NCBI GenBank assembly: GCA_963777505.1
Contig: CAVZQN010000004.1
Span: 1,152,001 to 1,216,000 of the forward strand
DNA: 64,000 nucleotides
Reading direction: 5' to 3'
DNA from: an uncultured bacterium
Lineage (GTDB): Bacteria; Acidobacteriota; HRBIN11; JAKEFK01
Part shown: in pieces, positions 38,752 through 52,744 of the stretch
Layout of the letters: each line of letters starts with the position of its first letter
Numbering within the stretch: position 1 is the stretch's first letter
Notes under the pieces: model-generated
Database searches by the model: none
The model's input: only the letters and a program-made list of their open reading frames with translations
Told to the model about the DNA's origin: nothing
Position numbers and translations under genes: made by a program

Positions 38752-40170
38752 ATGATGATCCTTCTATTTCTCTTATTTTCGTTATCGATATTTCAAACTG
38801 CAGACGCTGAGTTGGATGTTGTGTTCGCGAATGCACACGTCATGGACCCCGAATCTGGCGTTGATGCCATTCAACACATAGGTGTTCGCGGCAATCGGAT
38901 CGTTGAACTTTCAACGAATCCGCTGAGCGGCAAAACGGTGATCGATGCAAAAGGGCTCGTATTAGCGCCTGGTTTTATTGATCTTCACTCGCATGGTCAG
39001 TCTGACGAAAATTATCGTTACAAAGCGATGGATGGTGTAACCACTGCGCTTGAGTTAGAAGTTGGCGTTTCGCCGGTTGCAAAATGGTACACAGAACGTG
39101 AAGGAAAGGCCCTCGTAAACTACGGCGCTACGTGCGGTCATATTCCAGTACGCATGGCAGTGATGCATGATTCCGGAACATTCTTGCCGCGTGATAAGGC
39201 GGCAAATGTTCGAGCCACATCCGACGAAGTTCGACAAATTACTGAATTAATAAAACGAGGTTTGGAAGAAGGTGCACTTGGCATTGGTTTCGGTATTAAT
39301 TACGTTCCCAAAACAACACGGAGTGAGATCTTCGATCTTTTCAGCATTGCAGCGGAACACAAAGTAGCCAATTTTGTTCATATGCGCTTTTCCGGATCCG
39401 GTGAAACGGATGGCGCTCTTGTTGCTTTGCAAGAAGTGCTTGCCGATACTGCGGCAACAGGCGCTTCACTGCATGTGGTTCACATTACAAGCACATGTTT
39501 ACGGGAGACATCTACTTGTTTAAAGATGCTTGAAGGCGCACAGAGAAGTGGACTCGATGTCACAACGGAATCCTATCCCTACACTGCGACTGCAACACAG
39601 ATTGATTCAGCAATCTATAATGAAGGCTGGCAAGAACGGCTCGGTATTACATACAAAGATTTGCAATGGGTCGCAACTGGTGAACGGCTTACGAAAGAGT
39701 CGTTCGATCGTTATCGAAAAACCGGTGGAGCTGTGATTGGTCATTCGATTCCTGAAGAAATTGCGCGTCTGGCTGTTGCGAATTCGAATGTAATCGTTGC
39801 AAGCGACGGTCGCTTCGTTGAAGGAAAAGGTCATCCACGCAGTGCTGGCACATTTGCGCGTGTGCTCGGATATTATGTGCGCGAACAGAAGGCACTTAGC
39901 TTAATGGATGCAATCCGTAAAATGACTTTATTGCCTGCACAACGATTAGAAAAATCAGTACCGCAAATGAAAACGAAAGGGCGGATCAAGGTTGGCATGG
40001 ATGCTGATCTCACACTCTTCGATCCGGCCCGCGTCATTGACCGTGCAACTTTTGAAAATCCGGCCCAATTTTCCGAAGGGATCCATCATGTGATGGTGAA
40101 CGGCGTATTCGTAGTACGAGATGGCAAAATCGTTGAAGGGGTAAAGCCGGGAATCGCAATTCGCCGATAA
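38752..40170 (+). CDS. Secreted amidohydrolase (D-aminoacylase-like)
   Basis: APGFIDLHSH, HMR, HVVHI, ASDG, HPRSAGTFARVLG, DADLTLFDP; signal peptide. Confidence 0.88.
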   Translation: MMILLFLLFSLSIFQTADAELDVVFANAHVMDPESGVDAIQHIGVRGNRIVELSTNPLSGKTVIDAKGLVLAPGFIDLHSHGQSDENYRYKAMDGVTTALELEVGVSPVAKWYTEREGKALVNYGATCGHIPVRMAVMHDSGTFLPRDKAANVRATSDEVRQITELIKRGLEEGALGIGFGINYVPKTTRSEIFDLFSIAAEHKVANFVHMRFSGSGETDGALVALQEVLADTAATGASLHVVHITSTCLRETSTCLKMLEGAQRSGLDVTTESYPYTATATQIDSAIYNEGWQERLGITYKDLQWVATGERLTKESFDRYRKTGGAVIGHSIPEEIARLAVANSNVIVASDGRFVEGKGHPRSAGTFARVLGYYVREQKALSLMDAIRKMTLLPAQRLEKSVPQMKTKGRIKVGMDADLTLFDPARVIDRATFENPAQFSEGIHHVMVNGVFVVRDGKIVEGVKPGIAIRR

Positions 40171-40197
40171 GAACTCAACCGCAAAGACGCCAAGATA

Positions 40198-41142
40198 TTA
40201 AGGTTTTCGTTTTCTGGGTTCCAGAGTTTTCATGTCGTAGTGAGTTTTGAAGAATTCATCACACCAGAGACAAATATTTTTCAGGTCTCGCGTTCTTTCT
40301 TTGGCGTATTCTTCCGTCACGCCAACTGATTCACCCATTTTCCATGGAGCACCTTCATTTAACTGTTTGAAAATTTCAGAACGCGATACCCGCATCAGTA
40401 CATCGGCAACTTTCTCTTTACGAGCATCACCCATCGGTTCGAGTGTTCCAGGACAACACGGATTGATTTTCCAAAGTTGAATTGAGACTTCTTGCGGAAT
40501 ATCTTCTGAGCCCCCAAGGAATCCGCGTGCACCGGAAAGGATTGCGCAAAAGTTGTGCATCGGATCCTTTTTCCAAATCCCTTTTTGAATTGCGCGGCCT
40601 CGTGCCCAATTTCCACCAAGCCACATTTCTTCCGTGGCACCCCAGAATCCATAACTGATCCGATCTTTCTTGAGGTATGTTTCTTTTTCAATCAATGGAT
40701 CAGTGTTTTCATCGCTCATCCCACGCGAACGAAATAGCTGCGTGAGTGCTTCTTTTCGTTCGCCTTTGTATTTATGGTAACTGTCGATTGAAGCAACATC
40801 GAAGCGAGTCACTCCTTTTTGAATTAAAGTATCCAGAATTTCTTCTGTCAGAAGATCGCCGTTAGTTTGAAGCATGATCTGAGTCGTGTTGGAATATTTT
40901 TTCTTTAAAGTGTCGAGTATCAAATAAAGTTGTTTCCGCTCCGCAAGCGGCTCACCGCCCGAAAGGATTAAACGATCGATTCGATCGGGCAGATGATCGA
41001 TGATTGCAAGGCATTCTTCATCGCTGATGCGTGAACCTTCAGGCCCGGAAAGGTTATAGCAATGATCACAAACGTCGTTGCATAGCTGAGTGAATACCCA
41101 GTACAAAGATTCGCAATGGTTAAAATCGTTTTTTATAAGCAT
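40198..41142 (-). CDS. Radical SAM enzyme of unknown function with extra C-terminal cysteines
   Basis: CNDVCDHC (CxxxCxxC), SGGEPL, QTNG; later NFC, PCCP, CLWC. Confidence 0.9.
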   Translation of the reverse strand: MLIKNDFNHCESLYWVFTQLCNDVCDHCYNLSGPEGSRISDEECLAIIDHLPDRIDRLILSGGEPLAERKQLYLILDTLKKKYSNTTQIMLQTNGDLLTEEILDTLIQKGVTRFDVASIDSYHKYKGERKEALTQLFRSRGMSDENTDPLIEKETYLKKDRISYGFWGATEEMWLGGNWARGRAIQKGIWKKDPMHNFCAILSGARGFLGGSEDIPQEVSIQLWKINPCCPGTLEPMGDARKEKVADVLMRVSRSEIFKQLNEGAPWKMGESVGVTEEYAKERTRDLKNICLWCDEFFKTHYDMKTLEPRKRKP

Positions 41143-41148
41143 GTCTTC

Positions 41149-41194
41149 GTAGGGCCGGTCTTGTGCCGGCCCGGGCGGCCACAGCCGTCCCTAC
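41149..41194. repeat. REP-like GTAG...CTAC doublet; related copy at 62624-62648
   Basis: gtagggccggtcttgtgccggcccgggcggccacagccgtccctac; gggcggccacaagggccgcccctac. Confidence 0.6.
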
Positions 41195-41923
41195 TGTCGT
41201 TTTTGTAACAAGCCTTCCCAAAACTCGATCTCACGCTGAACACCTGTTTTAGGATCGTGAATGAATTGCTGAACATCGTCAAAAACTTCCAGCGTACCTT
41301 TCTGCATTAGAGCAATTTGGTCACCCATCAGGATCGCTTCCTTCAAATCGTGTGTAACAAAAATCGATGTAATTTTGAACTGCTTTGCAACAGTTACGAA
41401 AAAATGTCTGCATCGAAGTGCGTGTCTCCGCGTCAAGATTGCCGAAAGGTTCGTCCAGAAGCAGCAACAAAGGATTCACAATGAATGCACGTCCAAAAGA
41501 AACTCTTTGCTTTTGGCCTCCGGAAAGTTGATGCGGCATCTTGCGCGCATGCTCATCAATCTGCAAACTCTGAATCATTTGAGCTGTTTTTTCTTGAATC
41601 TCTTTTTCCGGAAGTTTGCGCAACCTCAACCCAAAAGCAATATTTTCAAAAACATCCAGATGAGGAAACAAAAGCGTTTCCTGATAAAGATAAACAATAT
41701 TTCTCTTATGCGCTGGAACTTCATTTACGATTGTTTCTTGCAAAACTATTTGTCCGGAATCGCCCGCCAACAAGCCCGCGATAATCTTAAGGAGCGTAGT
41801 TTTGCCGCAACCAGAACGTCCCACAATGCTAAGGTTGTGATGCTCATTCAAGGAAAAGCTTAAATCCGAAAGAACTCTGTCTGATTGGAACGATTTATTC
41901 AAACTTTCAACTTTTAATAGCAT
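41191..41923 (-). CDS. ABC transporter ATP-binding subunit, split by +1 frameshift in an A/T run near 41400
   Basis: GRSGCGKTT, LSGGQKQR, LLLDEPF; FVTHD switch His lies in the downstream frame. Confidence 0.9.
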
Positions 41924-42695
41924 TTATGCAGGCTTTTTGAAAATGTAATTTTTATTAAACCAGAGCAAAATTGCAGGAGGCATGATCAGCAGACAGCTCG
42001 CCACCGCAGCATAGTACGGATTGGCTTCATTTATATATTGATAGACTTTAACAGTCAGCGTTTGAATCTTTCCAACCCCGATGATTGTAGTTAATCCGTA
42101 TTCGAACCACGAAATCAAAAATGTTTGGAAAAAGCAGACAAGCAGCATTGGCCGAGATATTGGGACAATTACTCGAAAGAAAGTTTGAAAGGTATCACTT
42201 CCGAGAGTTGCTGAAAGCTGTTCCAATGATTTCAGACGACTGCTCCAGTACCCGCTAAAAAAAATTACACTGAATGGATACGCAATGATGAATTGAGCCA
42301 GAACGACTCCGCTTGCTTTTCCTGCAAGTCCCAGTTTTACGAAAGAAAAGTAAATACATGCCGCATAAATAACAGGTGAAAGAATGTACGGCAAATACGC
42401 TGCAAAAAGTAGTTGATTATTTCTAGGATGATACGCCACGGCACGACTTGTCACAAATCCGAGTGCTGTTGCCGAAACCGAAACGGCAATCGAAATGCCT
42501 GCCGATATCGCCAGACCGGAAAGTAGACTGCTGTGCGCTGAGAAAAGCGTCAACCAATTGTTCATTGTTACTTGATCCGGAAGTACTTTCGGATATTGCC
42601 AGTTGTTTGTTAATGAAAGTAATGCCAGGAATGCAAAAGGAAAAGCAAATACGTATAACTGCGACAATAGAAGTGGATTGTTGTTTAGAGGTCAT
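41924..42695 (-). CDS. ABC transporter permease (YnjC-like half), +1 frameshift near 42660
   Basis: NWQYPKVLP, EQLSATLGS (EAA loop); likely true start ATG 42695 (MTSKQQ...) overlapping the upstream gene's end. Confidence 0.85.
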
Positions 42696-43536
42696 AGGCC
42701 AGTTTCCGTTTTCTAAACAAGAGAACAATGAATATTCCAGTCAGGATCAAATACAGAACCGCCATCGTATACGCGGTTGGAATGTCCTGAAGATTGAATC
42801 GCTGCAACTTCCTGATTAACAAGACGGAGATCATTTGTGGATTTTGTCTGCCGAGGAGCAGCGGGATTTCGTATGATCCAAGCACGAAAATGAAATACAG
42901 CACAATCGTTGGAAATGATCTCTTCAGTAAAATTGGGATGGCAATTTTGAGTTCCGCTTGAACGAAGCTCGCGCCGAGAGTTCTTGCCAGCCTGTGCAGC
43001 TCTTCTAGATTTTCACTCTCATTCAAGTTCGCAAACAAGATTGCGAAAAAAGGAAGCCCCATCAAAACGTGAGTTGCGATGATGCCGATGCCAAACGCAT
43101 CCTGAATCAGGTCAGGAAATTCTTGAACTCGGGTGATCCAGCCGAATTGAAAGAAGACTCTGGAGAACAAACCTGCTCTGGCAAAAACTTGAAAAGCAAA
43201 AAATGCAGCAACGATTGCAGGGATTCCAAGCGGAAGATAAAAAAATGTCGAAATCCATCCATGCGATAGTTCTTTTTTTAAGATGGAAACGACAAGAAGT
43301 GCCAACGAAATCGTGATTGTCATTGAAACGATCGCGATATAAAGACTAAACAAAAAAGATGAGATAACTTCGTTGGAAGTGAGAGTTGTGATCCAGTAAG
43401 AAATCGTAAATCCAGGGCGTAAGATGCCGGCAAGGCCAACACTGTAAAGTGCTGCATATCCAAAGGACATGAATAATGGAACTATGGTGAATAACGCAAA
43501 AACAAAGAGAGCAGATGTGTTGAGCTTACTTTTCAA
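42685..43536 (-). CDS. ABC transporter permease (YnjC-like half)
   Basis: 6 TMs, LARTLGAS EAA loop, GSYEIPLLLG. Confidence 0.88.
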   Translation of the reverse strand: MKSKLNTSALFVFALFTIVPLFMSFGYAALYSVGLAGILRPGFTISYWITTLTSNEVISSFLFSLYIAIVSMTITISLALLVVSILKKELSHGWISTFFYLPLGIPAIVAAFFAFQVFARAGLFSRVFFQFGWITRVQEFPDLIQDAFGIGIIATHVLMGLPFFAILFANLNESENLEELHRLARTLGASFVQAELKIAIPILLKRSFPTIVLYFIFVLGSYEIPLLLGRQNPQMISVLLIRKLQRFNLQDIPTAYTMAVLYLILTGIFIVLLFRKRKLAYDL

Positions 43537-44759
43537 TTACATGTTTCCTGAAATCATCATACAACCGGATCATGTATTCCGGGGCGAGTTCCGGCAGAGC
43601 TTTTGAATTAATTTCCTCACGTTTTGGCGCTAATTTCCTGCCAGGAACATTTTGAAATTTCTGCTGCCAATCCGCGGGTAACTGCTGGAGATTCAAAACC
43701 GTCCCATCTCCCCATACATTTGGTTTTGATTTTTCGAGTTGTGCTTCCGGTGAAATAAGGAAGTTGCAAACGACCATTCCGCCGGCTTTGTTACCGGAGC
43801 GATTTACAATTCCAATGTAATGTGAATTTTGAATTGTGCCGGAATCCAAAACATAGGCTTTTGAAGATGAAGGAAATAGGCCTTGCATTACTTTGTTGTC
43901 AACTTCACCATCATTATTGCTCATCGTAAAATCAAGTTCACTGCTTGCAAACATCTGATGCATCGGCGCGACGGCATCCGGAAATGTTTTGCCCTGTTTC
44001 CAGAAATATGGCTTGATGCGATTGATGTAGTTCCAAAGTTCGGCGGAATATTTTTCGTATTTCTCTTTGTTAAACGGTCCGGACAATTCCGCCTTACTTC
44101 CTGAAATCGCAATCAAAAAAGACTTCAGCAAGAGTCATTCCTGTAAAATCATTTCCGATCGTGAATTTCCCTGGATGCTTTTTTACATAAAGCTCCAATT
44201 CCTCCATATTCCGTGGAGGATCGTTCACCCGCCTGCTGTCATAAATGATGGCAAGCTGTACATTTCCCCACGGACATTCCATCCCATTTACTGGCTGCTG
44301 AAAGTCGGTGTTGATGAACGGGTTTTGCCAGTCGATATATTTTGAGTTTGGAAGACGCTCTGTAAAAGGTCCATATAAGCCCTGGATCTCGCGCAATTGA
44401 TAAAATGTTTCTCCATTGATCCAGCAAAGATCGATCTGGCTCGAAGTTTCCTTTGCTTCGATTTCAGTCATCAAGATTTGAACGATTTTGTTTCCTTGAC
44501 CTTCTGAAATATTGAGCGTGACTCCGAAGTCATTTTGTAGATGAGGTTTTACGTAGTTATTCATGTATGCATTGATATAAGGATCGCCACCCCACATCAT
44601 CAGTGTGACACTGGTGCCTTTCGCCGAGGCAAGAATCTGATCCCAATTCATTGCGGCAACATCTTGGGTCTGTTGCTGAGTTTTGCAGTGGCTTAAAAAC
44701 AAAGAAGCAAAAATCAAGATCGCGATCTTGCAACGAACGCTTTTATCCATTTGTTGCAC
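43526..44759 (-). CDS. YnjB-like ABC substrate-binding lipoprotein, split by +1 frameshift near 44130
   Basis: MWGGDPYIN, DLCWINGETF, ECPWGNVQLA, DFTGMT/LLK, NFLISPEAQ, WGDGTVL; LSHC lipobox. Confidence 0.88.
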
Positions 44760-44761
44760 GC

Positions 44762-47743
44762 TTAAAAGAGATAGCGCACTGTGAATTGGAATTGACGTGG
44801 TGGTGCAGCGTTCCGCTGAACAAAAATGCCCGAAGCTTTTGATCCAACTTGAATTTGATTGCTCTGCGTCGCGTTGTTGGAATAGCCGCTTAAATTGTTT
44901 TCGTTGAATACATTAAATATGTCTGCGCGTAAGATCAGATTCGACCAGTTGTACTGTGCCCCAACATCGAATGTATACGACCATGGCAGCCGATCGTTAT
45001 TCCTTGATTCACCAGGAAAGCGATCGCTGTTTCCGACATAGGCATCACCAAACGAACGGCCGTCCCCGTTTAGATCGGTCGTACCGAAAAGGATTGCATC
45101 CGGAATGCGATTGATAGGCTGTCCACTTTGCAACAAGGCCGCAACTGTAAATGAGAAATCATTGATCGGATAGTAATCGAAAACAGCACTGATTACATGG
45201 CGGCGATCGTTGATCGAAGCTCCCCATTCTTCTTCAAAATTGTTCGCATCTTCCGCGCGAAAATTAATGTCTTCAGTATTGTTTCGCAGCGAAGATAACG
45301 TATAAAACAATAAGTATGAATACTGATCATCCGCTCTCGTTTTTTGATACGTGAAGTTGGCTGCATAGTATTTTGATTCGCCTTCAGTTTCTGTAACCAC
45401 AATATTTCTTGCGATTCCCCGGACGATCTGTCCGTTGATAATCGCATACGGACCTTGTGCATCGACAAAAATAGGAATCGCACGTGTTGCATCTGCTTCG
45501 GCCTGTGTCCGAACCACGACATTGTTTGGATCATTTAATGGATAAGGCGATGGCGCATTCAAATCACGCAAACGAAAAAGATTGTAAGAACGTGTGTGCA
45601 TCACATCTACGTAAAAAAGTTGGTCTTCTTTCACTTGAAATTGATAACCGGCAGAGAAGTGATGTGTGCTGGGGTTTTGATAACCATCTGGATTCAGAAT
45701 ACGAAGTTCGTTGCTGAATGTGCTATCACGAAGTCCTTGAAGATCTTCCGGACCCGGCCCGTTGAGATACGTAACATTTGAAAAAGTGCCGCTCAAATTC
45801 CCGTCATTGGTGACTCGATTTACATCGGTATTTGAGGGCAGTATGCCGAGACGGATTAGCTCCTGGATCTGGCTCTGATAATCCGCAGAGGTAGTACTGA
45901 ATTGCAGAGCATCGCTAAAAATTGCATACAGGATTTTGTCATAATACAGTCCATATCCACCACGAAAACTGCTGCGATCATTTACTCTATAATTCAGGCT
46001 CACACGTGGCGCAAAATTATTTGCATCTCCATCCGTTGAGCCGCCTTTTGAAAGATTATCGTAATCGTAACGCAAGCCCAGCGTTAAATTGAGATTGCTG
46101 CTCAATGAAATTAAATCTTCCGCATAAAAACTGTAAACATTTTGCCGAGCGCCGAAAGAGTTCGTACGCAGCTCAACGTTGTAATTAAGAACTTCGGCGT
46201 CTGATGGAATATCGTTGATATCCAGAGCTGAACCTGGATTTTGTGTTCGGAGTTGATCGAGTTGATCCTGATTGAGCTTTACAAGGTAATTGCCGTTTAC
46301 ATTACCACCACCCAGCAAAGAATGATCGGATGTTTTCACGCCGGCACCAAATTTGAAGGAATGGTTTCCCGTGTAATAATCCAGCTTTTGGTCGAACTGC
46401 CACGTATTTTCAAGTTCATCAAACACGAAACCCGGATGTCCAAGAACTGCAATTGTTTGTTCGCTGGGATCCAGCACAGTCACTTGCGGGCTGTCCGGAT
46501 TTTCACCGCGCCCATAATTCCATCGAAAACGAGAGTAGAGAAGATTTGTTTCAGACATGAAGTTGCCGTGCAGATAAGTGTTTTTTGATGCAAGCAGAAG
46601 TGAATTTCTATCCTGACTGTTAGCAGCAGAAGGGAATTGAACACCGCCCTCTAATCCACCTCCTTGACGTTCTATATTGACCCATCCGGAATTCACGCGA
46701 AAAGATGATTTCAGTTCGTCATTCCAGAGGTGATCCACTTTTCCGGAAAGCAGAGTAAAACGATTTTCTCCGCCCACTGTTTCATTCACCCCCAGTGGCG
46801 GGCTGTTCAAGAGATTGTCTTTTAAATCGAAAGTTTGCTCCGCATCGATGAAGAAAAACGTCTGATCGCGAACGATAGGACCGCCGAGCGCAAAACCTGC
46901 CTGGTGCCGTTGGAATCCGTCCTTCACTTGATTTCCGGAAAGATCTCTTTGAGCAAATTCTGACTCACCATCGATTGCCGGCCCTGGACGAACAACGTAA
47001 AATGCTTCGCCGTTCAAATTGTTACTTCCGGATCGGGTTGTGATGTTTACGATTCCGTTTCCACTTTGTCCAAATTCGCTGGAATAGTTGCTCGTCAAAA
47101 CCGTAACATTTTGTGTGATGCCTATTGGCGCTGCAAATTTCTGCCCGCCCAGAAAATTTTCATTGTTGTCCAGTCCATCGATCAAATAACTTGTGTAAAG
47201 TGAATTAGCGCCATTGATACTTACGTTTGGAGCTTCCGGAAAAAAGCCGGTCGCCTGAGTTACGTTTGGAAGACGAAACAAAACGCGTGTAACATCGCGT
47301 CCTTCAACTGGAATTGCTTCAATTTCTTCTGCTTCCAGTTCGGAGGATACTTCGGCATCAATCGTGTTGAGTTGGGTTGTTGCTCTGCCTTCAACAGTGA
47401 CTTCTTCGGCTTTATTTTCTTTTCGCGGTAGGTACAAATTCACACTCGACTTCTTATTAGATCGAACAAGAATATTTTCGGCTCTCGCCTCAAAATACTG
47501 ATCGTTTTCACCAACAGATACCGTGTAAGATCCGGAAGTTGAAAGAGCTGTGAATTGCGCTTTCCCCTGAGTGTTCGTTGCCTTTTGTATCGAATATCCA
47601 ATAGAACTGTTTTCTAAGCGAACCATAATTCCGGAGATTGCTTGTTGATTCGATAAATCGGATACAGTTACTTCCAATTCTTCCTGGGCAAATGCAATTT
47701 GAGCAATCAAAAGAAACAAAACAGAAATGAATAGTTTCTTCAT
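44762..47743 (-). CDS. TonB-dependent receptor (Oar/carboxypeptidase-regulatory-domain type)
   Basis: Signal peptide, N-terminal Ig-like domain, plug YLIDGLDNNE, SGSN, LTLGLRYDY, C-terminal PRQFQFTVRYLF. Confidence 0.92.
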   Translation of the reverse strand: MKKLFISVLFLLIAQIAFAQEELEVTVSDLSNQQAISGIMVRLENSSIGYSIQKATNTQGKAQFTALSTSGSYTVSVGENDQYFEARAENILVRSNKKSSVNLYLPRKENKAEEVTVEGRATTQLNTIDAEVSSELEAEEIEAIPVEGRDVTRVLFRLPNVTQATGFFPEAPNVSINGANSLYTSYLIDGLDNNENFLGGQKFAAPIGITQNVTVLTSNYSSEFGQSGNGIVNITTRSGSNNLNGEAFYVVRPGPAIDGESEFAQRDLSGNQVKDGFQRHQAGFALGGPIVRDQTFFFIDAEQTFDLKDNLLNSPPLGVNETVGGENRFTLLSGKVDHLWNDELKSSFRVNSGWVNIERQGGGLEGGVQFPSAANSQDRNSLLLASKNTYLHGNFMSETNLLYSRFRWNYGRGENPDSPQVTVLDPSEQTIAVLGHPGFVFDELENTWQFDQKLDYYTGNHSFKFGAGVKTSDHSLLGGGNVNGNYLVKLNQDQLDQLRTQNPGSALDINDIPSDAEVLNYNVELRTNSFGARQNVYSFYAEDLISLSSNLNLTLGLRYDYDNLSKGGSTDGDANNFAPRVSLNYRVNDRSSFRGGYGLYYDKILYAIFSDALQFSTTSADYQSQIQELIRLGILPSNTDVNRVTNDGNLSGTFSNVTYLNGPGPEDLQGLRDSTFSNELRILNPDGYQNPSTHHFSAGYQFQVKEDQLFYVDVMHTRSYNLFRLRDLNAPSPYPLNDPNNVVVRTQAEADATRAIPIFVDAQGPYAIINGQIVRGIARNIVVTETEGESKYYAANFTYQKTRADDQYSYLLFYTLSSLRNNTEDINFRAEDANNFEEEWGASINDRRHVISAVFDYYPINDFSFTVAALLQSGQPINRIPDAILFGTTDLNGDGRSFGDAYVGNSDRFPGESRNNDRLPWSYTFDVGAQYNWSNLILRADIFNVFNENNLSGYSNNATQSNQIQVGSKASGIFVQRNAAPPRQFQFTVRYLF

Positions 47744-47843
47744 TTCTTCTCTCCTTGTAGAGCTATCGGCAGAGGATCGGTATGGATGCCGGTGCGTGTT
47801 ATCAGTTTTCGGGAGAGGAAAATGGAAGTTCGGAAGGAGGTGG
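47738..47843 (-). promoter_or_regulatory. Putative anti-SD hairpin coupled to a polyproline stall site
   Basis: mRNA CUUCCAUUUUCCUCUCC (47828-47812, codons L-P-F-S-S-P just after PPP) can pair with GGAGAGAAGAAAUGAAG (47754-47738, SD + AUG of the receptor). Confidence 0.55.
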
Positions 47844-48545
47844 TAATTGCCAGCGCGATCGCTGGATGTCGGTAGGCAGGTGAATTAGTGAAAGGAAAGT
47901 ATCACTTTTATGATGCTGCTTCAGTTCTTTCAGCAATGATCGAGCCCTGGCTCCGATTTTGTTTTTGCAACTTGCCAGAAGCCGAAGATCTTCTATCGAA
48001 TCGATGTCATGCTTAACCGATAATAAGCACGTATTTTCTTCTCCGAAGACATGTTGAAGTTGGTCACGATCGGTGTTTTTTTGCCATTGAATTTCTGAAA
48101 GTTTATGGCTGTCTTGAATATGAAAGCCAATGAGGTAGCATCCTCCACGGTGATCCGGACCGATGACAAGTCGATGTTTTGAGAGTTGCGCAAGGGCTGT
48201 CTTGATATCCCTGGATTGAAGTTCCGGACAATCGGAACCGATAACAATGATTTGTTGATAACCAGTTTGAGCAAGTTTTGCGATTGCGTTTTGCAATCGC
48301 TCGCTGAAGGATGCACCGGTTTGAGCGTGTGTAAAGATTTTGATGCTTTCTGATCTTTTCGAATTCGAACGAAGATCTATGTCCGTACTGAAAAGATGTA
48401 CATCAGCGTCAGCGGTAACATCAGAAGTCAGGGACGGAATTTGTAGGAATTCCGAAAATCTTTTGGTGAATCCTCGAAGAGCGAGATCCGTTTGAATACC
48501 TGCAGCAAAAATGAGAACAGCTTTAGTGCATTTGGAATTTGCCAT
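47802..48545 (-). CDS. DUF2064 (TIGR04282/CofC-like GT-A fold) protein with C-terminal extension ending WQLPPPSELPFSSPEN
   Basis: QTGASFSERLQNA, IIVIGSDCPEL, IGPDHRGGCYLIG, DIDSIEDL. Confidence 0.85.
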   Translation of the reverse strand: MANSKCTKAVLIFAAGIQTDLALRGFTKRFSEFLQIPSLTSDVTADADVHLFSTDIDLRSNSKRSESIKIFTHAQTGASFSERLQNAIAKLAQTGYQQIIVIGSDCPELQSRDIKTALAQLSKHRLVIGPDHRGGCYLIGFHIQDSHKLSEIQWQKNTDRDQLQHVFGEENTCLLSVKHDIDSIEDLRLLASCKNKIGARARSLLKELKQHHKSDTFLSLIHLPTDIQRSRWQLPPPSELPFSSPEN

Positions 48546-48580
48546 GAAAAAATCCGGCTATCATCAACTCTATATTAGTT

Positions 48581-48817
48581 TCAATTGGGTTTTGGTTTAT
48601 TCTCCATTTGCTGCTTGGCTTTCTGTCGATCGGCTATTTCCTCCTGGACGAGTTTATAGGCAAGATAATATTTGAAGATATTGCTTACATATGTAACTGT
48701 TTCCTGTCCGATGCGCTCGGCAGCAACCCGTTCAACGTTATTGAACCAAAGGTTCGGATTCAAACCTTTTTGTGCGGCTTCTTTGCGCAAGTTCCGTATT
48801 CGATTCGGTCCTGCATA
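48581..48817 (-). pseudogene. C-terminal remnant of an MltF-like lytic transglycosylase
   Basis: YAGPNRIRNLRKEAAQKGLNPNLWFNNVE...IGQETVTYVSNIFKYYLAY preceded by an in-frame TAG; SBP and catalytic regions absent. Confidence 0.7.
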
Positions 48818-48994
48818 CTAGATTGTTTTCTCACAGTCTTTAGCCTTCCCGGTCGTTGGCAGTAATGCTTGACGTACTATTTTTCACTAAAGTCTACATT
48901 TATACAACATTGGAAAGATTTAGTTTCCGGAGAATATTTGTCATACTCTTGGCGTCTTGGCGGTTGAGTTCTTTTAGAGCAGTTGTTGTCGTTT

Positions 48995-49552
48995 CTATCT
49001 CTGGCCGAGATTTTTTACCTTCAAGCTCAAAGCAATCAAAATCACACCATTGATAATAGCGAAAAGACCAATAATCCAAATGACTGCTAGCGCGCCGACT
49101 CCCGGGCGTAAAATCAAAATAAGCCCAAACAATAGTGACATCACGCCACTAAATCCTAGAAGCCATTCTGTTTCGATCACCTTCCGCAATCGAATGGCTG
49201 CGACGATATGAAAGATTCCGGTGATGATTGCCCAAAATGCAATAAACCAAAGCAATACTAACCCGGTAGTGCCAGGCCATAAGAATGTGAGAATGCCGAT
49301 TGCAATACTCAAAATGCCTGAAATCAAAGTTGCCCACCATCGTTCCTGTTCACCATATTGCTTGATTCCAAGCACGAGGGAAAAAATACCATCAATGAGG
49401 GCCCACGCACCAAAGAGGGTGATCAAGAACACAATTGTCATTCCTGGCCAAACAAAAGCAAGAATTCCAAACAGAATTGCTGCGACTCCACGAAGAAGCA
49501 AGAGCCACCAGTATTTAGAGATCATGTTCGTCAACGTACTCAGTGAATTCAT
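48995..49552 (-). CDS. HdeD/DUF308 family membrane protein
   Basis: WWLLLLRGVAAILFGILAFVWPG repeat structure; AGGAGG SD. Confidence 0.9.
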   Translation of the reverse strand: MNSLSTLTNMISKYWWLLLLRGVAAILFGILAFVWPGMTIVFLITLFGAWALIDGIFSLVLGIKQYGEQERWWATLISGILSIAIGILTFLWPGTTGLVLLWFIAFWAIITGIFHIVAAIRLRKVIETEWLLGFSGVMSLLFGLILILRPGVGALAVIWIIGLFAIINGVILIALSLKVKNLGQR

Positions 49553-49610
49553 TCACGTCCTCCTTGAGCAATTAGAATTTGAATTGGTCATAGTGTCAGT
49601 CTGCAGAATT

Positions 49611-50369
49611 TCATAAACTGTGAGGCATTGGCACTCCGAGCAGACGGGCGGCCGCCATGATCATCTGAATGGCTAATGCGACCTGGAGTACTCCCAGCAC
49701 TGCGCCTAGTACCCCAAGTACGCCTGAGCCGTGCTTTAGAATCGGTCGCGCAAACCACATAGCAATCAGATTAAGAATCATTACCAATAGAAAAATTCCC
49801 AAAATGTTGAAATCTCGTGATTTGTCCGAAGCGCCAAGCATCAGAATCAGTGCGGCGGTTCCAAATGGTGTGATGATGCTAGGAAATGCCAAAGGTGAGA
49901 ATGCCAGACCTTTTCGAAGGGTAGTGACCTCGGCTTCTTCAGTTTCCGCGGAAGGAGCAGCATGGGGTTCATACTGCGACAACACAGTCTTCAATGCGAT
50001 GAGCAATAGAATCAAACCGCCTGCAAGTAGTAACGCTGGCAAAGAAACTCCCCATTTGAAAAGGAGATTTTGTCCCAAGAGTGCTGCGACCAAACCCGCC
50101 AGGCACGCAATGACAAAGCCTTTTAGTGCGAGGCGTCTCGATGTTGCATCGTCCATTCCCTTTGTAATCTTCACAAAGGGTCCCAATAATTTAATCGGGC
50201 CAAGCATCACTAGAAAGAAAGTGAAGATTTTGCTGTAAGGAATCGTCAGTTCCCTGGCGCCTTCCGCGGAGGAACTCGACTCGGCGCCAGGCGATGCCGT
50301 TTGTGCCACGGCAGTTGCGGTCAATCCCAGAAGCAGCAACATTGCGCCAATCTTCAGAAATTTCATCAT
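49611..50369 (-). CDS. MarC family membrane protein with N-terminal signal-peptide-like extension
   Basis: FFLVMLGP, AGGLILLLIAL, AFSPLAFPSI, LAIQMI. Confidence 0.82.
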   Translation of the reverse strand: MMKFLKIGAMLLLLGLTATAVAQTASPGAESSSSAEGARELTIPYSKIFTFFLVMLGPIKLLGPFVKITKGMDDATSRRLALKGFVIACLAGLVAALLGQNLLFKWGVSLPALLLAGGLILLLIALKTVLSQYEPHAAPSAETEEAEVTTLRKGLAFSPLAFPSIITPFGTAALILMLGASDKSRDFNILGIFLLVMILNLIAMWFARPILKHGSGVLGVLGAVLGVLQVALAIQMIMAAARLLGVPMPHSL

Positions 50370-50511
50370 GGATGTTCTCCTATCAATTATTGAGGTTCGT
50401 AAAGCAACGCCCGAGCCTTAGAACAAGAACTGCGGCCTGCTATTGGGTCTGGGCCGCTTATTCATTGGTTTGTCGTTCTCCCAAAGTAATATCTTTGGCC
50501 TTGTGAAGATA

Positions 50512-50527
50512 TTGGACCTTAGTCCAG
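50512..50527. promoter_or_regulatory. Palindromic operator TTGGACTWWAGTCCAA (copy 1)
   Basis: TTGGACCTTAGTCCAG upstream of marC. Confidence 0.65.
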
Positions 50528-50586
50528 TGGCTTGGGTGTGACCGATTGTGATTACTATTAATATAGTATTACTTTTTGAGGATGCA

Positions 50587-51786
50587 TTACTTTGCGGTTT
50601 GCTCTTTAGTATTCGGGTCGCGCACAAATCTAACACCGAGGTGATCAGTACCTGTATTTAGTTCACCTTTTCCGCGGGTTCCAACCATGTAGCGCGTGCA
50701 GTATTGATCAGTGCACAAGAAGGAACCGCCGCGATGAACGCGCTTTTTTTCAGTGGGCTCGGATGGATCAAATGACGATTCGGGTCCGGCTGGATTTTTA
50801 GTTACACCACCAACTTTCGCTAACTCTGCATAATAATCAGGACGATACCAGTCGCTGACCCATTCCCAAACATTGCCTCCCACATCGTAAAGTCCATAAC
50901 CGTTCGGAGTAAAAGAAGCTACGGGAGCGATTCCTGCGAAGCCATCGCTGCCAGTGTCTGCTACTGGAAATTTCCCCTGATACGTATTTGCCATGGGTTT
51001 ATTCTGAGCATTCAAATCATCGCCCCATGCATAGAGTTTTCCAGTCAAACCGCCGCGTGCGGCAAACTCCCATTCGGCTTCAGTCGGGAGACGTTTGCCT
51101 GCCCACTTTGCATAAGCAAGAGCATCGTCATATGCAATATGAACGACTGGATATTTCTCCTTACCTTTGATATTGCTTTCGGGTCCTTGCGGATGGCGCC
51201 AGTTTGCGCCGGTCTGATAACGCCACCATTGATAATGATTATTCAATGGGACTGCTTCGATAGAGGCAGAGAACACAATTGAACCAGCTACAAGATTCTC
51301 CGGCGGAGCGTCAGGAAATTCTTCTTTAGTGGGTGTGCGTTCAGCGATGGTTACATAACCTGTCGCTTTGATGAACTTCACGAATTCTTCATTCGTCAAC
51401 TCAGTCGCATCCATCCAGAACCCATCAACATATACCCGATGAACTGGTAATGCATCGCGCGTCAGACCGGGCATATCACACATCGATTCGCTTTCGGCAG
51501 TACTGCCCATTGAAAATTCACCACCCGGTATCCATACCATTCCTTTCGGTGCAGGACCAGGTGCCGATGTTGAATTGCTCTTTGTCGATACGAAAGTAAC
51601 AGAAGGTGATGAAGATGGCTCTGACTTCACCGTAGAAACACGCGCTTGTTCGGGGATCGGAGGCGTCGATTTTCGTAAAACGAAATAGGCCAAAACAGCA
51701 GCCCCGATTAACGCCAACGGTAACCACCAAATTATGTAAGATCTGGTCTGTTGCTTTTCGCGCCTGGCGTGATTTCGTTGTGACAT
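50587..51786 (-). CDS. Formylglycine-generating enzyme family (FGE-sulfatase)
   Basis: RLPTEAEWEFAARGG, NGYGLYDVGGNVWEW, RGGSFLCTDQYC; N-terminal TM. Confidence 0.92.
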   Translation of the reverse strand: MSQRNHARREKQQTRSYIIWWLPLALIGAAVLAYFVLRKSTPPIPEQARVSTVKSEPSSSPSVTFVSTKSNSTSAPGPAPKGMVWIPGGEFSMGSTAESESMCDMPGLTRDALPVHRVYVDGFWMDATELTNEEFVKFIKATGYVTIAERTPTKEEFPDAPPENLVAGSIVFSASIEAVPLNNHYQWWRYQTGANWRHPQGPESNIKGKEKYPVVHIAYDDALAYAKWAGKRLPTEAEWEFAARGGLTGKLYAWGDDLNAQNKPMANTYQGKFPVADTGSDGFAGIAPVASFTPNGYGLYDVGGNVWEWVSDWYRPDYYAELAKVGGVTKNPAGPESSFDPSEPTEKKRVHRGGSFLCTDQYCTRYMVGTRGKGELNTGTDHLGVRFVRDPNTKEQTAK

Positions 51787-51840
51787 TGTTTTCAGATGTA
51801 TTAACTAAACGACTATCGAGCAGAAATTATGGATCTCAGA

Positions 51841-51860
51841 TATTGGACTTTAGTCCAATA
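51841..51860. promoter_or_regulatory. Palindromic operator (copy 2, perfect arms)
   Basis: TATTGGACT-TT-AGTCCAATA between divergent FGE and hypothetical genes. Confidence 0.75.
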
Positions 51861-51964
51861 AACGCCTGAGACGAATTTAGTTTACTATGTACAAGCACCA
51901 CAGGTACATATCCTTCTATCCTCGGTGTATCTGGCCAGTCTTAAAACATTTCATGGAGGCATCA

Positions 51965-52744
51965 ATGCGACAAATTTTAATGCTCACACTTCTTATTTTC
52001 GGAGTAGTTGGTTTTGTTTTTGCCCAAACAGGGGAACGGCTTTCAGACAAGGAAGTTAAAGAGATAATCGACAATGTCGATCATGGGCGTGATCGTTTTG
52101 AAGATGCAATGGAAAACAATTTGAAACATGCAATTTGGCGTGGTCCAAAAGGCGAAGTCGATATTTCAAAAGCCCTTGACGACTTCCAGGAAAATACAAA
52201 AGATTTGGAAGAACGCTTTAAACCGGATTATTCCGCAAGTAGTGAAGTGGGTGTTGTGCTCGAAAAAGCAACCAATATTAGCAATTTCCTATCGAATCAT
52301 CCTGGCACAAAAGGTGCGAGTGAATTTGATCATTTTGCAGTCGACTTGAAAAAGTTAGCGAACGCTTATGGAACGGATTTTCCAGTCCCTGAAGGCGCAT
52401 CATTTCGCAGAATCAATGATGGTGAAGCAGCAAAGGCTGCCGATTTACTAGCAAAGCAAGCGGATCAACTCAAGAAACAAATTGACAAGGACAAGACAAT
52501 TCCAGATGAGCAGCAAGAAATCTACAAAGATGATATTGATCAACTCATCAAGAGTTCGAAGACATTAAAGGACCGTCTTGCAGATTCGGATCCCGCAACG
52601 GCGGAAGCACGTACAGTGGTTGATCAGGCAGCGCAAATCGGTCAGGCATTGGAAGGCGCTCAAGTGGCGGCACCTGTTACGTCAGCATGGAGCTCAATGC
52701 AGGCGTCTTTGAGTAAGATCAAGCAAGCCTTCCAATTGGACTAG
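51965..52744 (+). CDS. Secreted helical protein with two internal repeats
   Basis: Signal peptide (VFA|QT); RLSDKEV... and RINDGEA... repeats; GGAGG SD. Confidence 0.75.
   Translation: MRQILMLTLLIFGVVGFVFAQTGERLSDKEVKEIIDNVDHGRDRFEDAMENNLKHAIWRGPKGEVDISKALDDFQENTKDLEERFKPDYSASSEVGVVLEKATNISNFLSNHPGTKGASEFDHFAVDLKKLANAYGTDFPVPEGASFRRINDGEAAKAADLLAKQADQLKKQIDKDKTIPDEQQEIYKDDIDQLIKSSKTLKDRLADSDPATAEARTVVDQAAQIGQALEGAQVAAPVTSAWSSMQASLSKIKQAFQLD

Follow-up and report, generated by a model that had tools for sequence, protein, structure and literature searches.

We analysed a 64,000-nucleotide (nt) stretch of the genome of an uncultured acidobacterium (contig CAVZQN010000004.1, positions 1,152,001 to 1,216,000), hereafter the window, in which an open reading frame (ORF) for a DUF2064-like protein heads a minus-strand cluster encoding a TonB-dependent receptor, an ABC transporter and a radical SAM protein (Table 1). 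This ORF matches the Pfam family DUF2064 (PF09837) over residues 45-154 with 80 bits for a gathering cut-off of 25.8 (E 1.6e-22), and its match to TIGR04282, which also begins at residue 45, scores 92.5 bits and lies below the curated cut-off of 134. An initial annotation made from the sequence alone had proposed that the protein is a ribosome-arrest leader, in which a ribosome stalled on three C-terminal prolines opens a stem that sequesters the Shine-Dalgarno (SD) sequence of the receptor gene. All the coordinates on which this proposal was built (PPP codons, pyrimidine run, stop codon, SD, ATG and 58-nt gap) are correct, and the DIDSIEDL and W-Q-L-P-P-P motifs that it named are residues 180-187 and 232-237 of the ORF. 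On the coding strand of the 58-nt gap we found neither promoter-like nor terminator-like sites. Rfam gave nothing in this gap, its sole match at E <= 1 in window positions 40000-52000 was a chance snoRNA, and no Rfam family reached its gathering score in eight loci. By comparing the window protein with its relatives, we found that the three prolines belong to a motif conserved near the C-terminus, and that a sister clade carries RGPP or RAPP, known as arrest motifs, at the aligned position. From this comparison, the window protein probably regulates the genes behind it while being made.

Table 1. Coordinates of the genes and RNA features at the DUF2064-like locus, in window positions
Feature	Position	Strand	Remarks
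DUF2064-like ORF (P0001)	48545-47802	minus	247 amino acids (aa); operon gene 1; KTRL loop absent
Folded core, residues 1-215, last helix 196-215	47901-48545	minus	MobA/CofC-like nucleotidyltransferase fold in AlphaFold2 (AF2) models
Conserved tail motif R-S-R-W-Q-L-P-P-P, residues 229-237	47835-47861	minus	From family alignments
PPP codons CCA CCT CCT	47843-47835	minus	Contain CUCCUU, chief predicted partner of the receptor SD
Residues after PPP, SELPFSSPEN (10, variable)	47805-47834	minus	Read from the translation
Stop codon TGA of the DUF2064-like ORF	47804-47802	minus	
Pyrimidine-rich segment CUUCCAUUUUCCUCUCC	47828-47812	minus	Complementary to the receptor ribosome-binding site (RBS); anti-SD of the initial annotation
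C-rich, G-poor stretch over the ORF 3' end and the start of the gap	47774-47924	minus	Candidate Rho-utilisation-like region
Intergenic gap, 58 nt	47744-47801	minus	
Receptor SD AAGGAG, 7 nt ahead of the AUG	47756-47751	minus	Paired with p 0.99 in the ensemble
Predicted 9-bp hairpin with the receptor AUG and codons 5-8	47723-47747	minus	Pair probabilities ~1.0
TonB-dependent receptor, 993 aa, signal peptide	47743-44762	minus	Plug, OMP_b-brl_4 and CarboxypepD_reg domains; ATG at 47743
YnjB-like ABC substrate-binding protein, two frames	43526-44759	minus	Halves match NF008633 positions 8-200 and 201-394
Two ABC permease genes	43536-42685 and 42667-41924	minus	
ABC ATPase, frameshifted	41191-41923	minus	
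Radical SAM protein, 314 aa	40198-41142	minus	Final cluster gene

A word-indexed search with the window protein returned 97 relatives, and loci were collected by scanning genomes (best 80 of 266) and by one metagenome scan (75), in Acidobacteriota and mostly in Verrucomicrobiota; the loci scanned in this way are at most 45% identical to the window protein. Thirty-five homologues that share 33-79% identity with the window protein were aligned: P235, P236 and P237 are unchanged in 35/35 sequences, and both W232 and Q233 are at least 90% conserved. With 145 sequences, the three prolines and Q233 are still at least 90% conserved. When the choice of loci rested only on the core motif DH[RQH]GG[CG]Y and on the C-terminus being complete (n=125), we observed the tail PPP, in the form Q-[LMI]-PPP, in 124 of them, from Acidobacteriota and Verrucomicrobiota. 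It is followed by 4 residues in 79 loci, by 5 in 23, by 3 in 5 and by other numbers (1-19) in 17, and a few members of the family have RPPP. The initial annotation had proposed to look for conserved proline tails among receptor-linked homologues, and such a motif does exist, at a fixed position, in a DUF2064-like clade that heads transport operons (hereafter the PPP clade). In a crude ORF set of the same genome, 22 of 3886 ORFs have PPP within their last 20 residues, so that a C-terminal PPP alone is not rare; judged from the alignments, it is its conservation across the family, not its mere presence, that goes far beyond chance. The same genome holds four short ORFs with a RAPP or RGPP motif, none of which precedes an ORF of at least 200 aa. 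Since only canonical DUF2064 proteins (at most 35% identity) turned up in genomes from the genus and family of the window, the distribution of the window-type gene is patchy. We also considered the C-terminal ...AFAA/ALAA as an ssrA-like degron and set it aside, as it occurs only in Verrucomicrobiota and is absent from the window clade.

A distant relative, P0096, was found in a metagenome-assembled genome of Cyclobacteriaceae (locus L072). Its C-terminus reads ...CRRGPPAISDI, and 27 nt downstream lies an ORF (taken from its first start codon) for a SusC-like receptor, followed by a SusD-like gene. Fujiwara et al. (PMC12992588) report that RAPP and RGPP cause a robust arrest refractory to elongation factor P (EF-P), RGPP being generally the strongest and AAPP inactive, that proteomes exclude both words, that these accumulate close to the C-terminal end of small proteins, most of which are secreted or lie in the membrane, and that such proteins sit upstream of diverse genes, including those of TonB-dependent receptors. 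An exhaustive HMMER search with P0096 gave 7797 cluster representatives at E <= 0.001, canonical DUF2064 proteins included, and the counts given here for the sister clade refer to the best 150 of these 7797, each standing for one 50%-identity cluster. R[AG]PP is present in the last 30 aa of 128 of the 150 (88 RGPP, 40 RAPP), where it is followed by 1-10 residues (mode 3). Five of the remaining representatives end in R[AG]P, 2 have RPPP, 3 K/R-[AS]-PP, 8 a KGSP variant and 4 none of these. Neither an R[AG]PP elsewhere in the protein nor an N-terminal hydrophobic run was found in any of the 150. When 56 sequences from the two clades were aligned jointly, they matched over their full length, with R-G-P-P opposite L-P-P-P; two prolines are invariant in 56/56 sequences, and the linker ahead of the motif is unconserved in sequence in the RxPP clade. 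A scan of genomes added 47 Bacteroidota loci, some from isolates of Marivirga, Marinoscillum and Emticicia, 46 of them with a recognisable core, whose tails are RGPP in 19, RAPP in 18, RGP-stop in 3, KAPP in 1, PPP in 2 and none in 3. For the 34 Bacteroidota loci with an annotated next gene, this gene encodes a TonB-dependent receptor in 22 cases, an ArsS-type radical SAM protein in 8 and a YnjB-like binding protein in 4, which is the same gene set as in the window.

Two deviations from the R[AG]PP tail were seen in this sister clade. In P0308, P0309, P0318, P0344, P0354, P0361, P0363 and P0366, N-K-G-S-P replaces R[AG]PP near the C-terminus; three of these representatives form a supported subclade in a quick tree, and the tail may be a further variant of the motif. 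In L170, L171, L173, P0230, P0232, P0237, P0303 and P0342, the ORF ends R-[GA]-P-stop, the stop codon taking the place of the second proline, and in the three loci L170, L171 and L173 the next gene, for an ArsS-type radical SAM protein, lies ~430 nt downstream.

Proteins of the window clade are DUF2064-like and ~230-250 aa long. AF2 models of the window protein (pLDDT 85.5 and 89.5) gave 3CGX as the top Foldseek match, followed by CofC/FbiD/IspD-type chains, and hmmsearch against the PDB also returned 3cgx (E 7e-20). The G-x-VKTRL loop, found in 17 of 18 canonical relatives, is absent from all the PPP members of the same alignment and from all 150 best sister-clade representatives, and the window clade has DHRGGCY where canonical relatives have DGGYY. 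In turn, neither R[AG]PP nor PPP occurs within the last 30 aa of any of the 17 canonical sequences that bear KTRL. On these alignments, the loss of the canonical nucleotide loop would fit a sensor better than an enzyme. A quick maximum-likelihood tree (SH-aLRT support, midpoint root only) separates the canonical KTRL-bearing DUF2064 proteins (99) from a KTRL-less clade made up of the PPP clade (99) and the RxPP clade (92).

We then measured how far the P-site proline lies from the D-x-D/N motif of the core, and found a median of 55 aa in both clades (interquartile ranges 52-56, n=106, and 54-55, n=86). Because several canonical proteins end ~10 residues past this core motif, the core would stand ~40-45 residues from the peptidyl-transferase centre at the stall, which is about the distance where a domain clears the tunnel. 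Thus, the tunnel-length spacer imagined in the initial annotation does correspond to a conserved length of ~55 aa between fold and prolines. In the AF2 model built from the 35-sequence alignment, the tail is of low confidence or disordered (pLDDT 51-62). A split-chain complex prediction between the core (1-215) and the tail (216-247) scored 0.00, which is evidence neither way. No signal peptide was apparent in the window ORF, its N-terminus forming the first beta-strand of the AF2 model, although no dedicated predictor was run.

The proline codons also carry a signal at the nucleotide level. The middle proline of PPP is encoded by CCT in 57 of 122 loci, compared to 9 of 122 at each of the invariant core prolines P107 and P130, and in 15.1 of 32 when weighted over the 32 clusters formed at 60% identity. 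As a background, CCT makes up 24% in the PPP motifs of other genes at these loci (n=37) and 20% of the first codons of PP pairs (n=548). The combination of CCC/U followed by C is reported to be generally selected against, being slow and frameshift-prone (Krafczyk et al., PMC8129111). Around the stop codon of both clades, from about -90 to +130 nt, we observed an excess of C over G (skew +0.06 to +0.14) that falls to ~0 in the flanks; over the C-rich stretch of the window, each 60 nt contain 18-24 C and 7-8 G. The proline codons account for part of this skew, not for its full extent.

Regarding gene order, the downstream gene is co-directional in every readable locus, and the PPP-clade gene is usually the first of its co-directional cluster. 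Sixty downstream ORFs of the PPP clade comprise 5 TonB-dependent receptors, 18 Porin_O_P and 1 Porin_4 proteins, 11 ArsM-like methyltransferases, 5 radical SAM proteins with DUF3641 (ArsS-type) and 6 other radical SAM proteins, and 14 ORFs match no Pfam family. The specific tie to TonB-dependent receptors drawn in the initial annotation is therefore lost, receptors being only 5 of the 60. A recurring order in the PPP clade is the DUF2064-like gene, an outer-membrane channel and then one of two gene sets. The first consists of genes for an ArsM-like methyltransferase, a PHO4/PitA-like transporter, a radical SAM protein and a flavin oxidoreductase; in the second, a radical SAM enzyme comes after a PhnS-like ABC system. 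As a separate observation, the clusters of L004-L071 combine a phosphate-selective porin with an ArsM-like methyltransferase that scores 342 bits to NF040538, below the cut-off, and these gene sets suggest the uptake and alkylation of an arsenic- or phosphorus-type oxyanion. The family of the window's radical SAM protein has 1297 relatives at E <= 1e-20, from Bacteroidota, Ignavibacteria, Calditrichota and others, without a specific NCBIfam name, and the 120 matches listed are 68-99% identical. We rejected this protein as an obligate partner, since the family to which it belongs extends well beyond the DUF2064-like gene and is much more strongly conserved.

Among characterised leaders, the closest parallel is CruR, a DUF2946 protein that heads an operon with a TonB-dependent transporter and is reported to sense copper as a nascent chain, copper relieving the arrest at its C-terminal RAPP and thereby leading to Rho-dependent termination (Roy et al., PMC9426467); a review describes this mechanism as the shielding of a Rho-utilisation (Rut) site (PMC12360218). 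Since relief by copper triggers Rho-dependent termination and the Rut site is shielded, CruR works through Rho and is not the example of an SD-sequestering stem for which the initial annotation had taken it.

Taking our observations together, we lean towards the tail proline motif being a regulatory pause or arrest element that acts through the nascent chain in a CruR-type, cis-acting leader. This idea of an arrest leader is substantially supported by the conserved proline tail, the RGPP/RAPP sister clade, the lost KTRL loop and the fixed spacer. With a ribosome on the prolines, the fold would be just out of the exit tunnel, and whether or not the domain is folded or has bound its ligand would determine how long the ribosome stays; the PPP form itself would then stall, in a regulated manner and in response to a ligand, and the dwell time of the ribosome would govern how strongly the co-transcribed genes for the channel, the ABC transporter and the radical SAM protein are expressed. 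Such a signal could be transduced by a CruR-like shielding of the C-rich, putatively Rho-loading stretch over the ORF end or, in the window, by the transient freeing of the paired SD. The CruR-like, Rho-dependent route is at least as likely as the SD-stem route. We also put forward, as a tentative possibility, that a cytosolic domain with nucleotidyltransferase fold has given up catalysis to become a co-translational small-molecule sensor, which would set the lifetime of an arrest ~55 residues downstream and thereby switch uptake and modification operons in three phyla. Sensing would consist of ligand-dependent folding or binding just outside the exit tunnel, with arrest at RGPP/RAPP or PPP, and the operons so switched would be those for a TonB-dependent receptor or porin, an ABC transporter, a radical SAM protein and an ArsM-like methyltransferase. 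RAPP-type leaders and CruR are already known; the proposed cytosolic nucleotidyltransferase-fold sensor and the PPP form are what is new here.

Several points weigh against the arrest-leader reading. The window has LPPP and thus lacks the arginine whose loss, in AAPP, is reported to abolish RAPP-type arrest (PMC12992588), and LPPP is described as a weak staller in Escherichia coli reporters that is over-represented in the proteome (PMC4176338). The source genome contains efp. In the PPP clade, ~10 residues ahead of PPP are conserved, a pattern that a motif serving the protein itself would produce just as well, and the pLDDT of residues 231-247 rises to 72-74 when the 145-sequence alignment is used, so that the motif could, according to this model, dock on the mature protein. 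Lacking a signal peptide, the protein would also require a release mechanism of a new kind. Proline codons by themselves generate part of the CCT excess and of the C>G skew, and the correction of both for shared ancestry is incomplete. Two genes of the operon are frameshifted, at the T6 runs 44120-44115 (YnjB-like gene) and 41404-41399 (ABC ATPase gene), which reflects either a (long-read) assembly error or decay at the start of pseudogenisation; the system may therefore be decaying here, or the assembly be erroneous. Finally, in 35 receptor-linked loci with curated starts, we forced the footprint of the stalled ribosome to be unpaired, with a footprint 12 codons upstream as a control. The mean accessibility of the start region went from 0.498 to 0.511, compared to 0.508 with the control footprint (Wilcoxon p 0.48), and in the window it went from 0.34 to 0.36. 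The gap to the next gene also varies, from 12 to ~250 nt across loci.

These last results bear most directly on the switch proposed initially, of the SecM/MifM type, in which a ribosome stalled on PPP melts the SD-sequestering stem and so turns receptor translation on. In the window itself an occluding fold is indeed predicted: RNAfold of the 151 nt from 47870 to 47720 gave a structure (minimum free energy -31.8 kcal/mol, z -2.47 versus shuffles) in which the final 45 nt of the ORF pair with the GGAG of the SD at p 0.99. Its main partner is the CUCC within the PPP codons (~0.71 of the pairing), which agrees with the suggestion that the CUCCUU there acts as an anti-AAGGAG. The 17-mer at 47828-47812 had been presented as an anti-SD with ~15 pairs. 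For the duplex with the receptor RBS it ranks top among 770 windows of the gene (-14.4 kcal/mol), an energy matched by 0.125% of 4000 random windows from the 64-kb window; because it is the best of the gene and its energy is rare, the complementarity is real, although it amounts to ~12-13 pairs and makes the 17-mer a minor partner in the ensemble (~0.25). Across 15 receptor-linked loci of the PPP clade, the ORF tail pairs with the RBS at a mean p of at least 0.4 in 7 and is the best or near-best RBS partner within the ORF in 4, and CCUCC occurs in the PPP codons of 13/13 acidobacterial receptor-linked loci. Against this stands the masking experiment in silico, where the start region stays closed both in the window and on average. 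In the window, the hairpin that contains the receptor AUG does not depend on the ORF ahead of it, and a second pyrimidine stretch takes the SD when the footprint is masked. Moreover, native tails pair only marginally better than synonymous recodings (p 0.04-0.77; Fisher's combined ~0.05 with loci that are non-independent), most downstream genes in Verrucomicrobiota and Bacteroidota have no SD and start regions that are open already, and the gaps are as variable as described. The SD-sequestering stem is thus not conserved, and we consider this switch improbable. Of the initial proposal, the arrest leader with an enzyme fold has gained strong comparative support, mainly from the RGPP/RAPP sister clade, whereas a PPP stall that opens an SD stem finds no support as the conserved principle.

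The tail could instead be a motif of the mature protein, with any pausing incidental and the gene encoding simply the pathway's first enzyme or an accessory protein. Such a motif might dock, promote oligomerisation or form an arm that completes a binding site, possibly by supplying arginines in place of the lost KTRL. Invariant PPP motifs needed for protein function occur in other proteins, and this explanation would account for the ~10 conserved residues before PPP, for the fixed distance to the C-terminus and for the rise in AF2 confidence over residues 231-247, from 51-62 to 72-74, which comes with a short helix predicted at 225-232. It also agrees with Asp, His and Cys residues of the core that are invariant, as in a working binding site, and with LPPP being weak and common in E. 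coli (PMC4176338). It fits poorly with the sister clade, which keeps only R-[AG]-P-P, an arrest word avoided in proteomes, in an otherwise unconserved linker, and with a linker whose length is conserved and sequence is not; neither the position-specific synonymous codon bias at the middle proline nor the co-directional gene that always lies behind would be expected from it. We regard this explanation as doubtful. A pause dependent on EF-P or tRNA(Pro) might also tune the protein copy number or couple the operon to translational capacity with no ligand involved, as for CadC or mgtP. PPP is the classic EF-P substrate and efp is present in the genome, the choice of CCU is reported to modulate pause strength and protein copy number (PMC8129111), and leaders with PPP codons that control downstream genes are on record (PMC5299641, PMC3641672). 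However, the EF-P-refractory RGPP/RAPP of the sister clade argues for a dedicated arrest rather than an EF-P readout, and a whole conserved domain with a fixed spacer would be needless for such a purpose, which makes this last possibility very improbable.

Further RNA features were noticed at these loci. An RNA hairpin across the PPP codons was rejected as a general feature, since it is confined to one verrucomicrobial subclade (10-bp stem, loop CCUC); over 111 loci its mean z is -0.26, with p <= 0.05 versus synonymous recodings in 12.6%, and the window has a z of +2.1. The +1 frame is open from the PPP codons up to the receptor ATG (window 47835-47743), and the ATG lies in that frame. We nevertheless rejected a programmed +1 frameshift at CCU-C that would join ORF and receptor into one product, because gap lengths modulo 3 vary between loci; the frame relation to the next gene not being conserved in homologous loci, we take the openness of this frame as chance. 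In Verrucomicrobiota (L025, L030, L021, L024, L049 and others), one or two GC-rich hairpins lie 10-60 nt past the stop codon of the DUF2064-like gene, such as CGCGAGC-loop-GCUCGCG. They come without a clear U-tract or an Rfam match and may be attenuator-like elements. In the Spirosomataceae loci L193, L195, L196 and L205, the gap ahead of the receptor gene contains a shared hairpin, UUCUUCA...UGAAGAA, with changes that appear compensatory; between it and the receptor start runs a long U-rich tract. Placed between leader and receptor gene, hairpin and tract together may form an intrinsic attenuator.

The arrest-peptide regulators known so far respond to protein export or, as CruR does, detect a metal with a small secreted domain. 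Here, a widespread family combines a full enzyme-like cytosolic domain, a spacer of fixed length and an arrest motif, and heads outer-membrane uptake and radical-SAM operons in soil and marine bacteria. If the sensor proposal is true, this would be the first arrest sensor with an enzyme fold that is independent of the export machinery for force. If the arrest is real, it would offer a testable system for how, in the absence of a translocon, a domain that folds or binds its ligand beyond the tunnel governs the peptidyl-transferase centre, give a role to an uncharacterised branch of DUF2064 and provide a pointer to the substrate of the conserved transporter and radical-SAM cluster. Experiments are feasible because there are cultured carriers (Marivirga, Marinoscillum and Emticicia).

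We found no mention of DUF2064 in the literature searched. The terms 'DUF' and 'glycosyltransferase' have no occurrence in the main text of PMC12992588, whose supplements may list these proteins, and papers retrieved with TIGR04282, PF09837 or 'arsenosugar biosynthesis glycosyltransferase' contain nothing on the tail in their titles and the start of their abstracts.

Compared with CruR of Bordetella pertussis, the window gene shares its place as the first gene of an operon with a TonB-dependent transporter, a folded protein instead of a mini-peptide and a conserved C-terminal proline motif a few codons before the stop. The regulation by CruR is cis-acting and post-transcriptional, and the C-rich ORF end of the window would fit such a shielding from Rho. 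By contrast, the fold in the window is MobA/CofC-like and not DUF2946, there is neither a signal peptide nor a CXXC, and the tail has LPPP instead of RAPP, RAPP/RGPP being found only in the Bacteroidota sister clade. The RAPP/RGPP peptides of the ApdA/ApdP/ApcA type are likewise shorter than 300 aa, with the motif within ~10 residues of the C-terminus and a co-directional regulated gene behind; the window ORF has 247 aa, 10 residues after PPP and the receptor 58 nt downstream, and in the sister clade the motif is, as in these peptides, absent from the rest of the protein. Yet the window tail reads Q-L-P-P-P, without an R-[AG]-P-P core. Known RAPP leaders are reported to be mostly secreted or membrane proteins, with export supplying the pulling force (PMC12992588); they monitor Sec/YidC or bind metals, whereas the DUF2064-like family is cytosolic and has an enzyme fold.

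As in SecM and MifM, pairing is predicted in the window between the downstream SD and the 3'-terminal part of the preceding ORF, but the stem is neither conserved nor opened by the footprint in silico, and there is no pulling force from export. With canonical DUF2064/TIGR04282 proteins ('arsenosugar biosynthesis glycosyltransferase', 3CGX), the window protein shares the fold, the motifs G-x-D-C/x-P, GG-x-Y-L and D-x-D, and radical SAM (ArsS-type) and ArsM-like neighbours; it differs by the absence of G-x-VKTRL, by DHRGGC in place of DGGYY and by a C-terminal extension with the proline motif. The PPP of CadC and the mgtP leader resemble the DUF2064-like clade in having three consecutive proline codons and, in this clade, a non-random codon choice. 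Unlike them, the window has a leucine at -1, weak in E. coli, and a motif homologous to EF-P-refractory motifs, a homology that, on sequence grounds, suggests a dedicated arrest.

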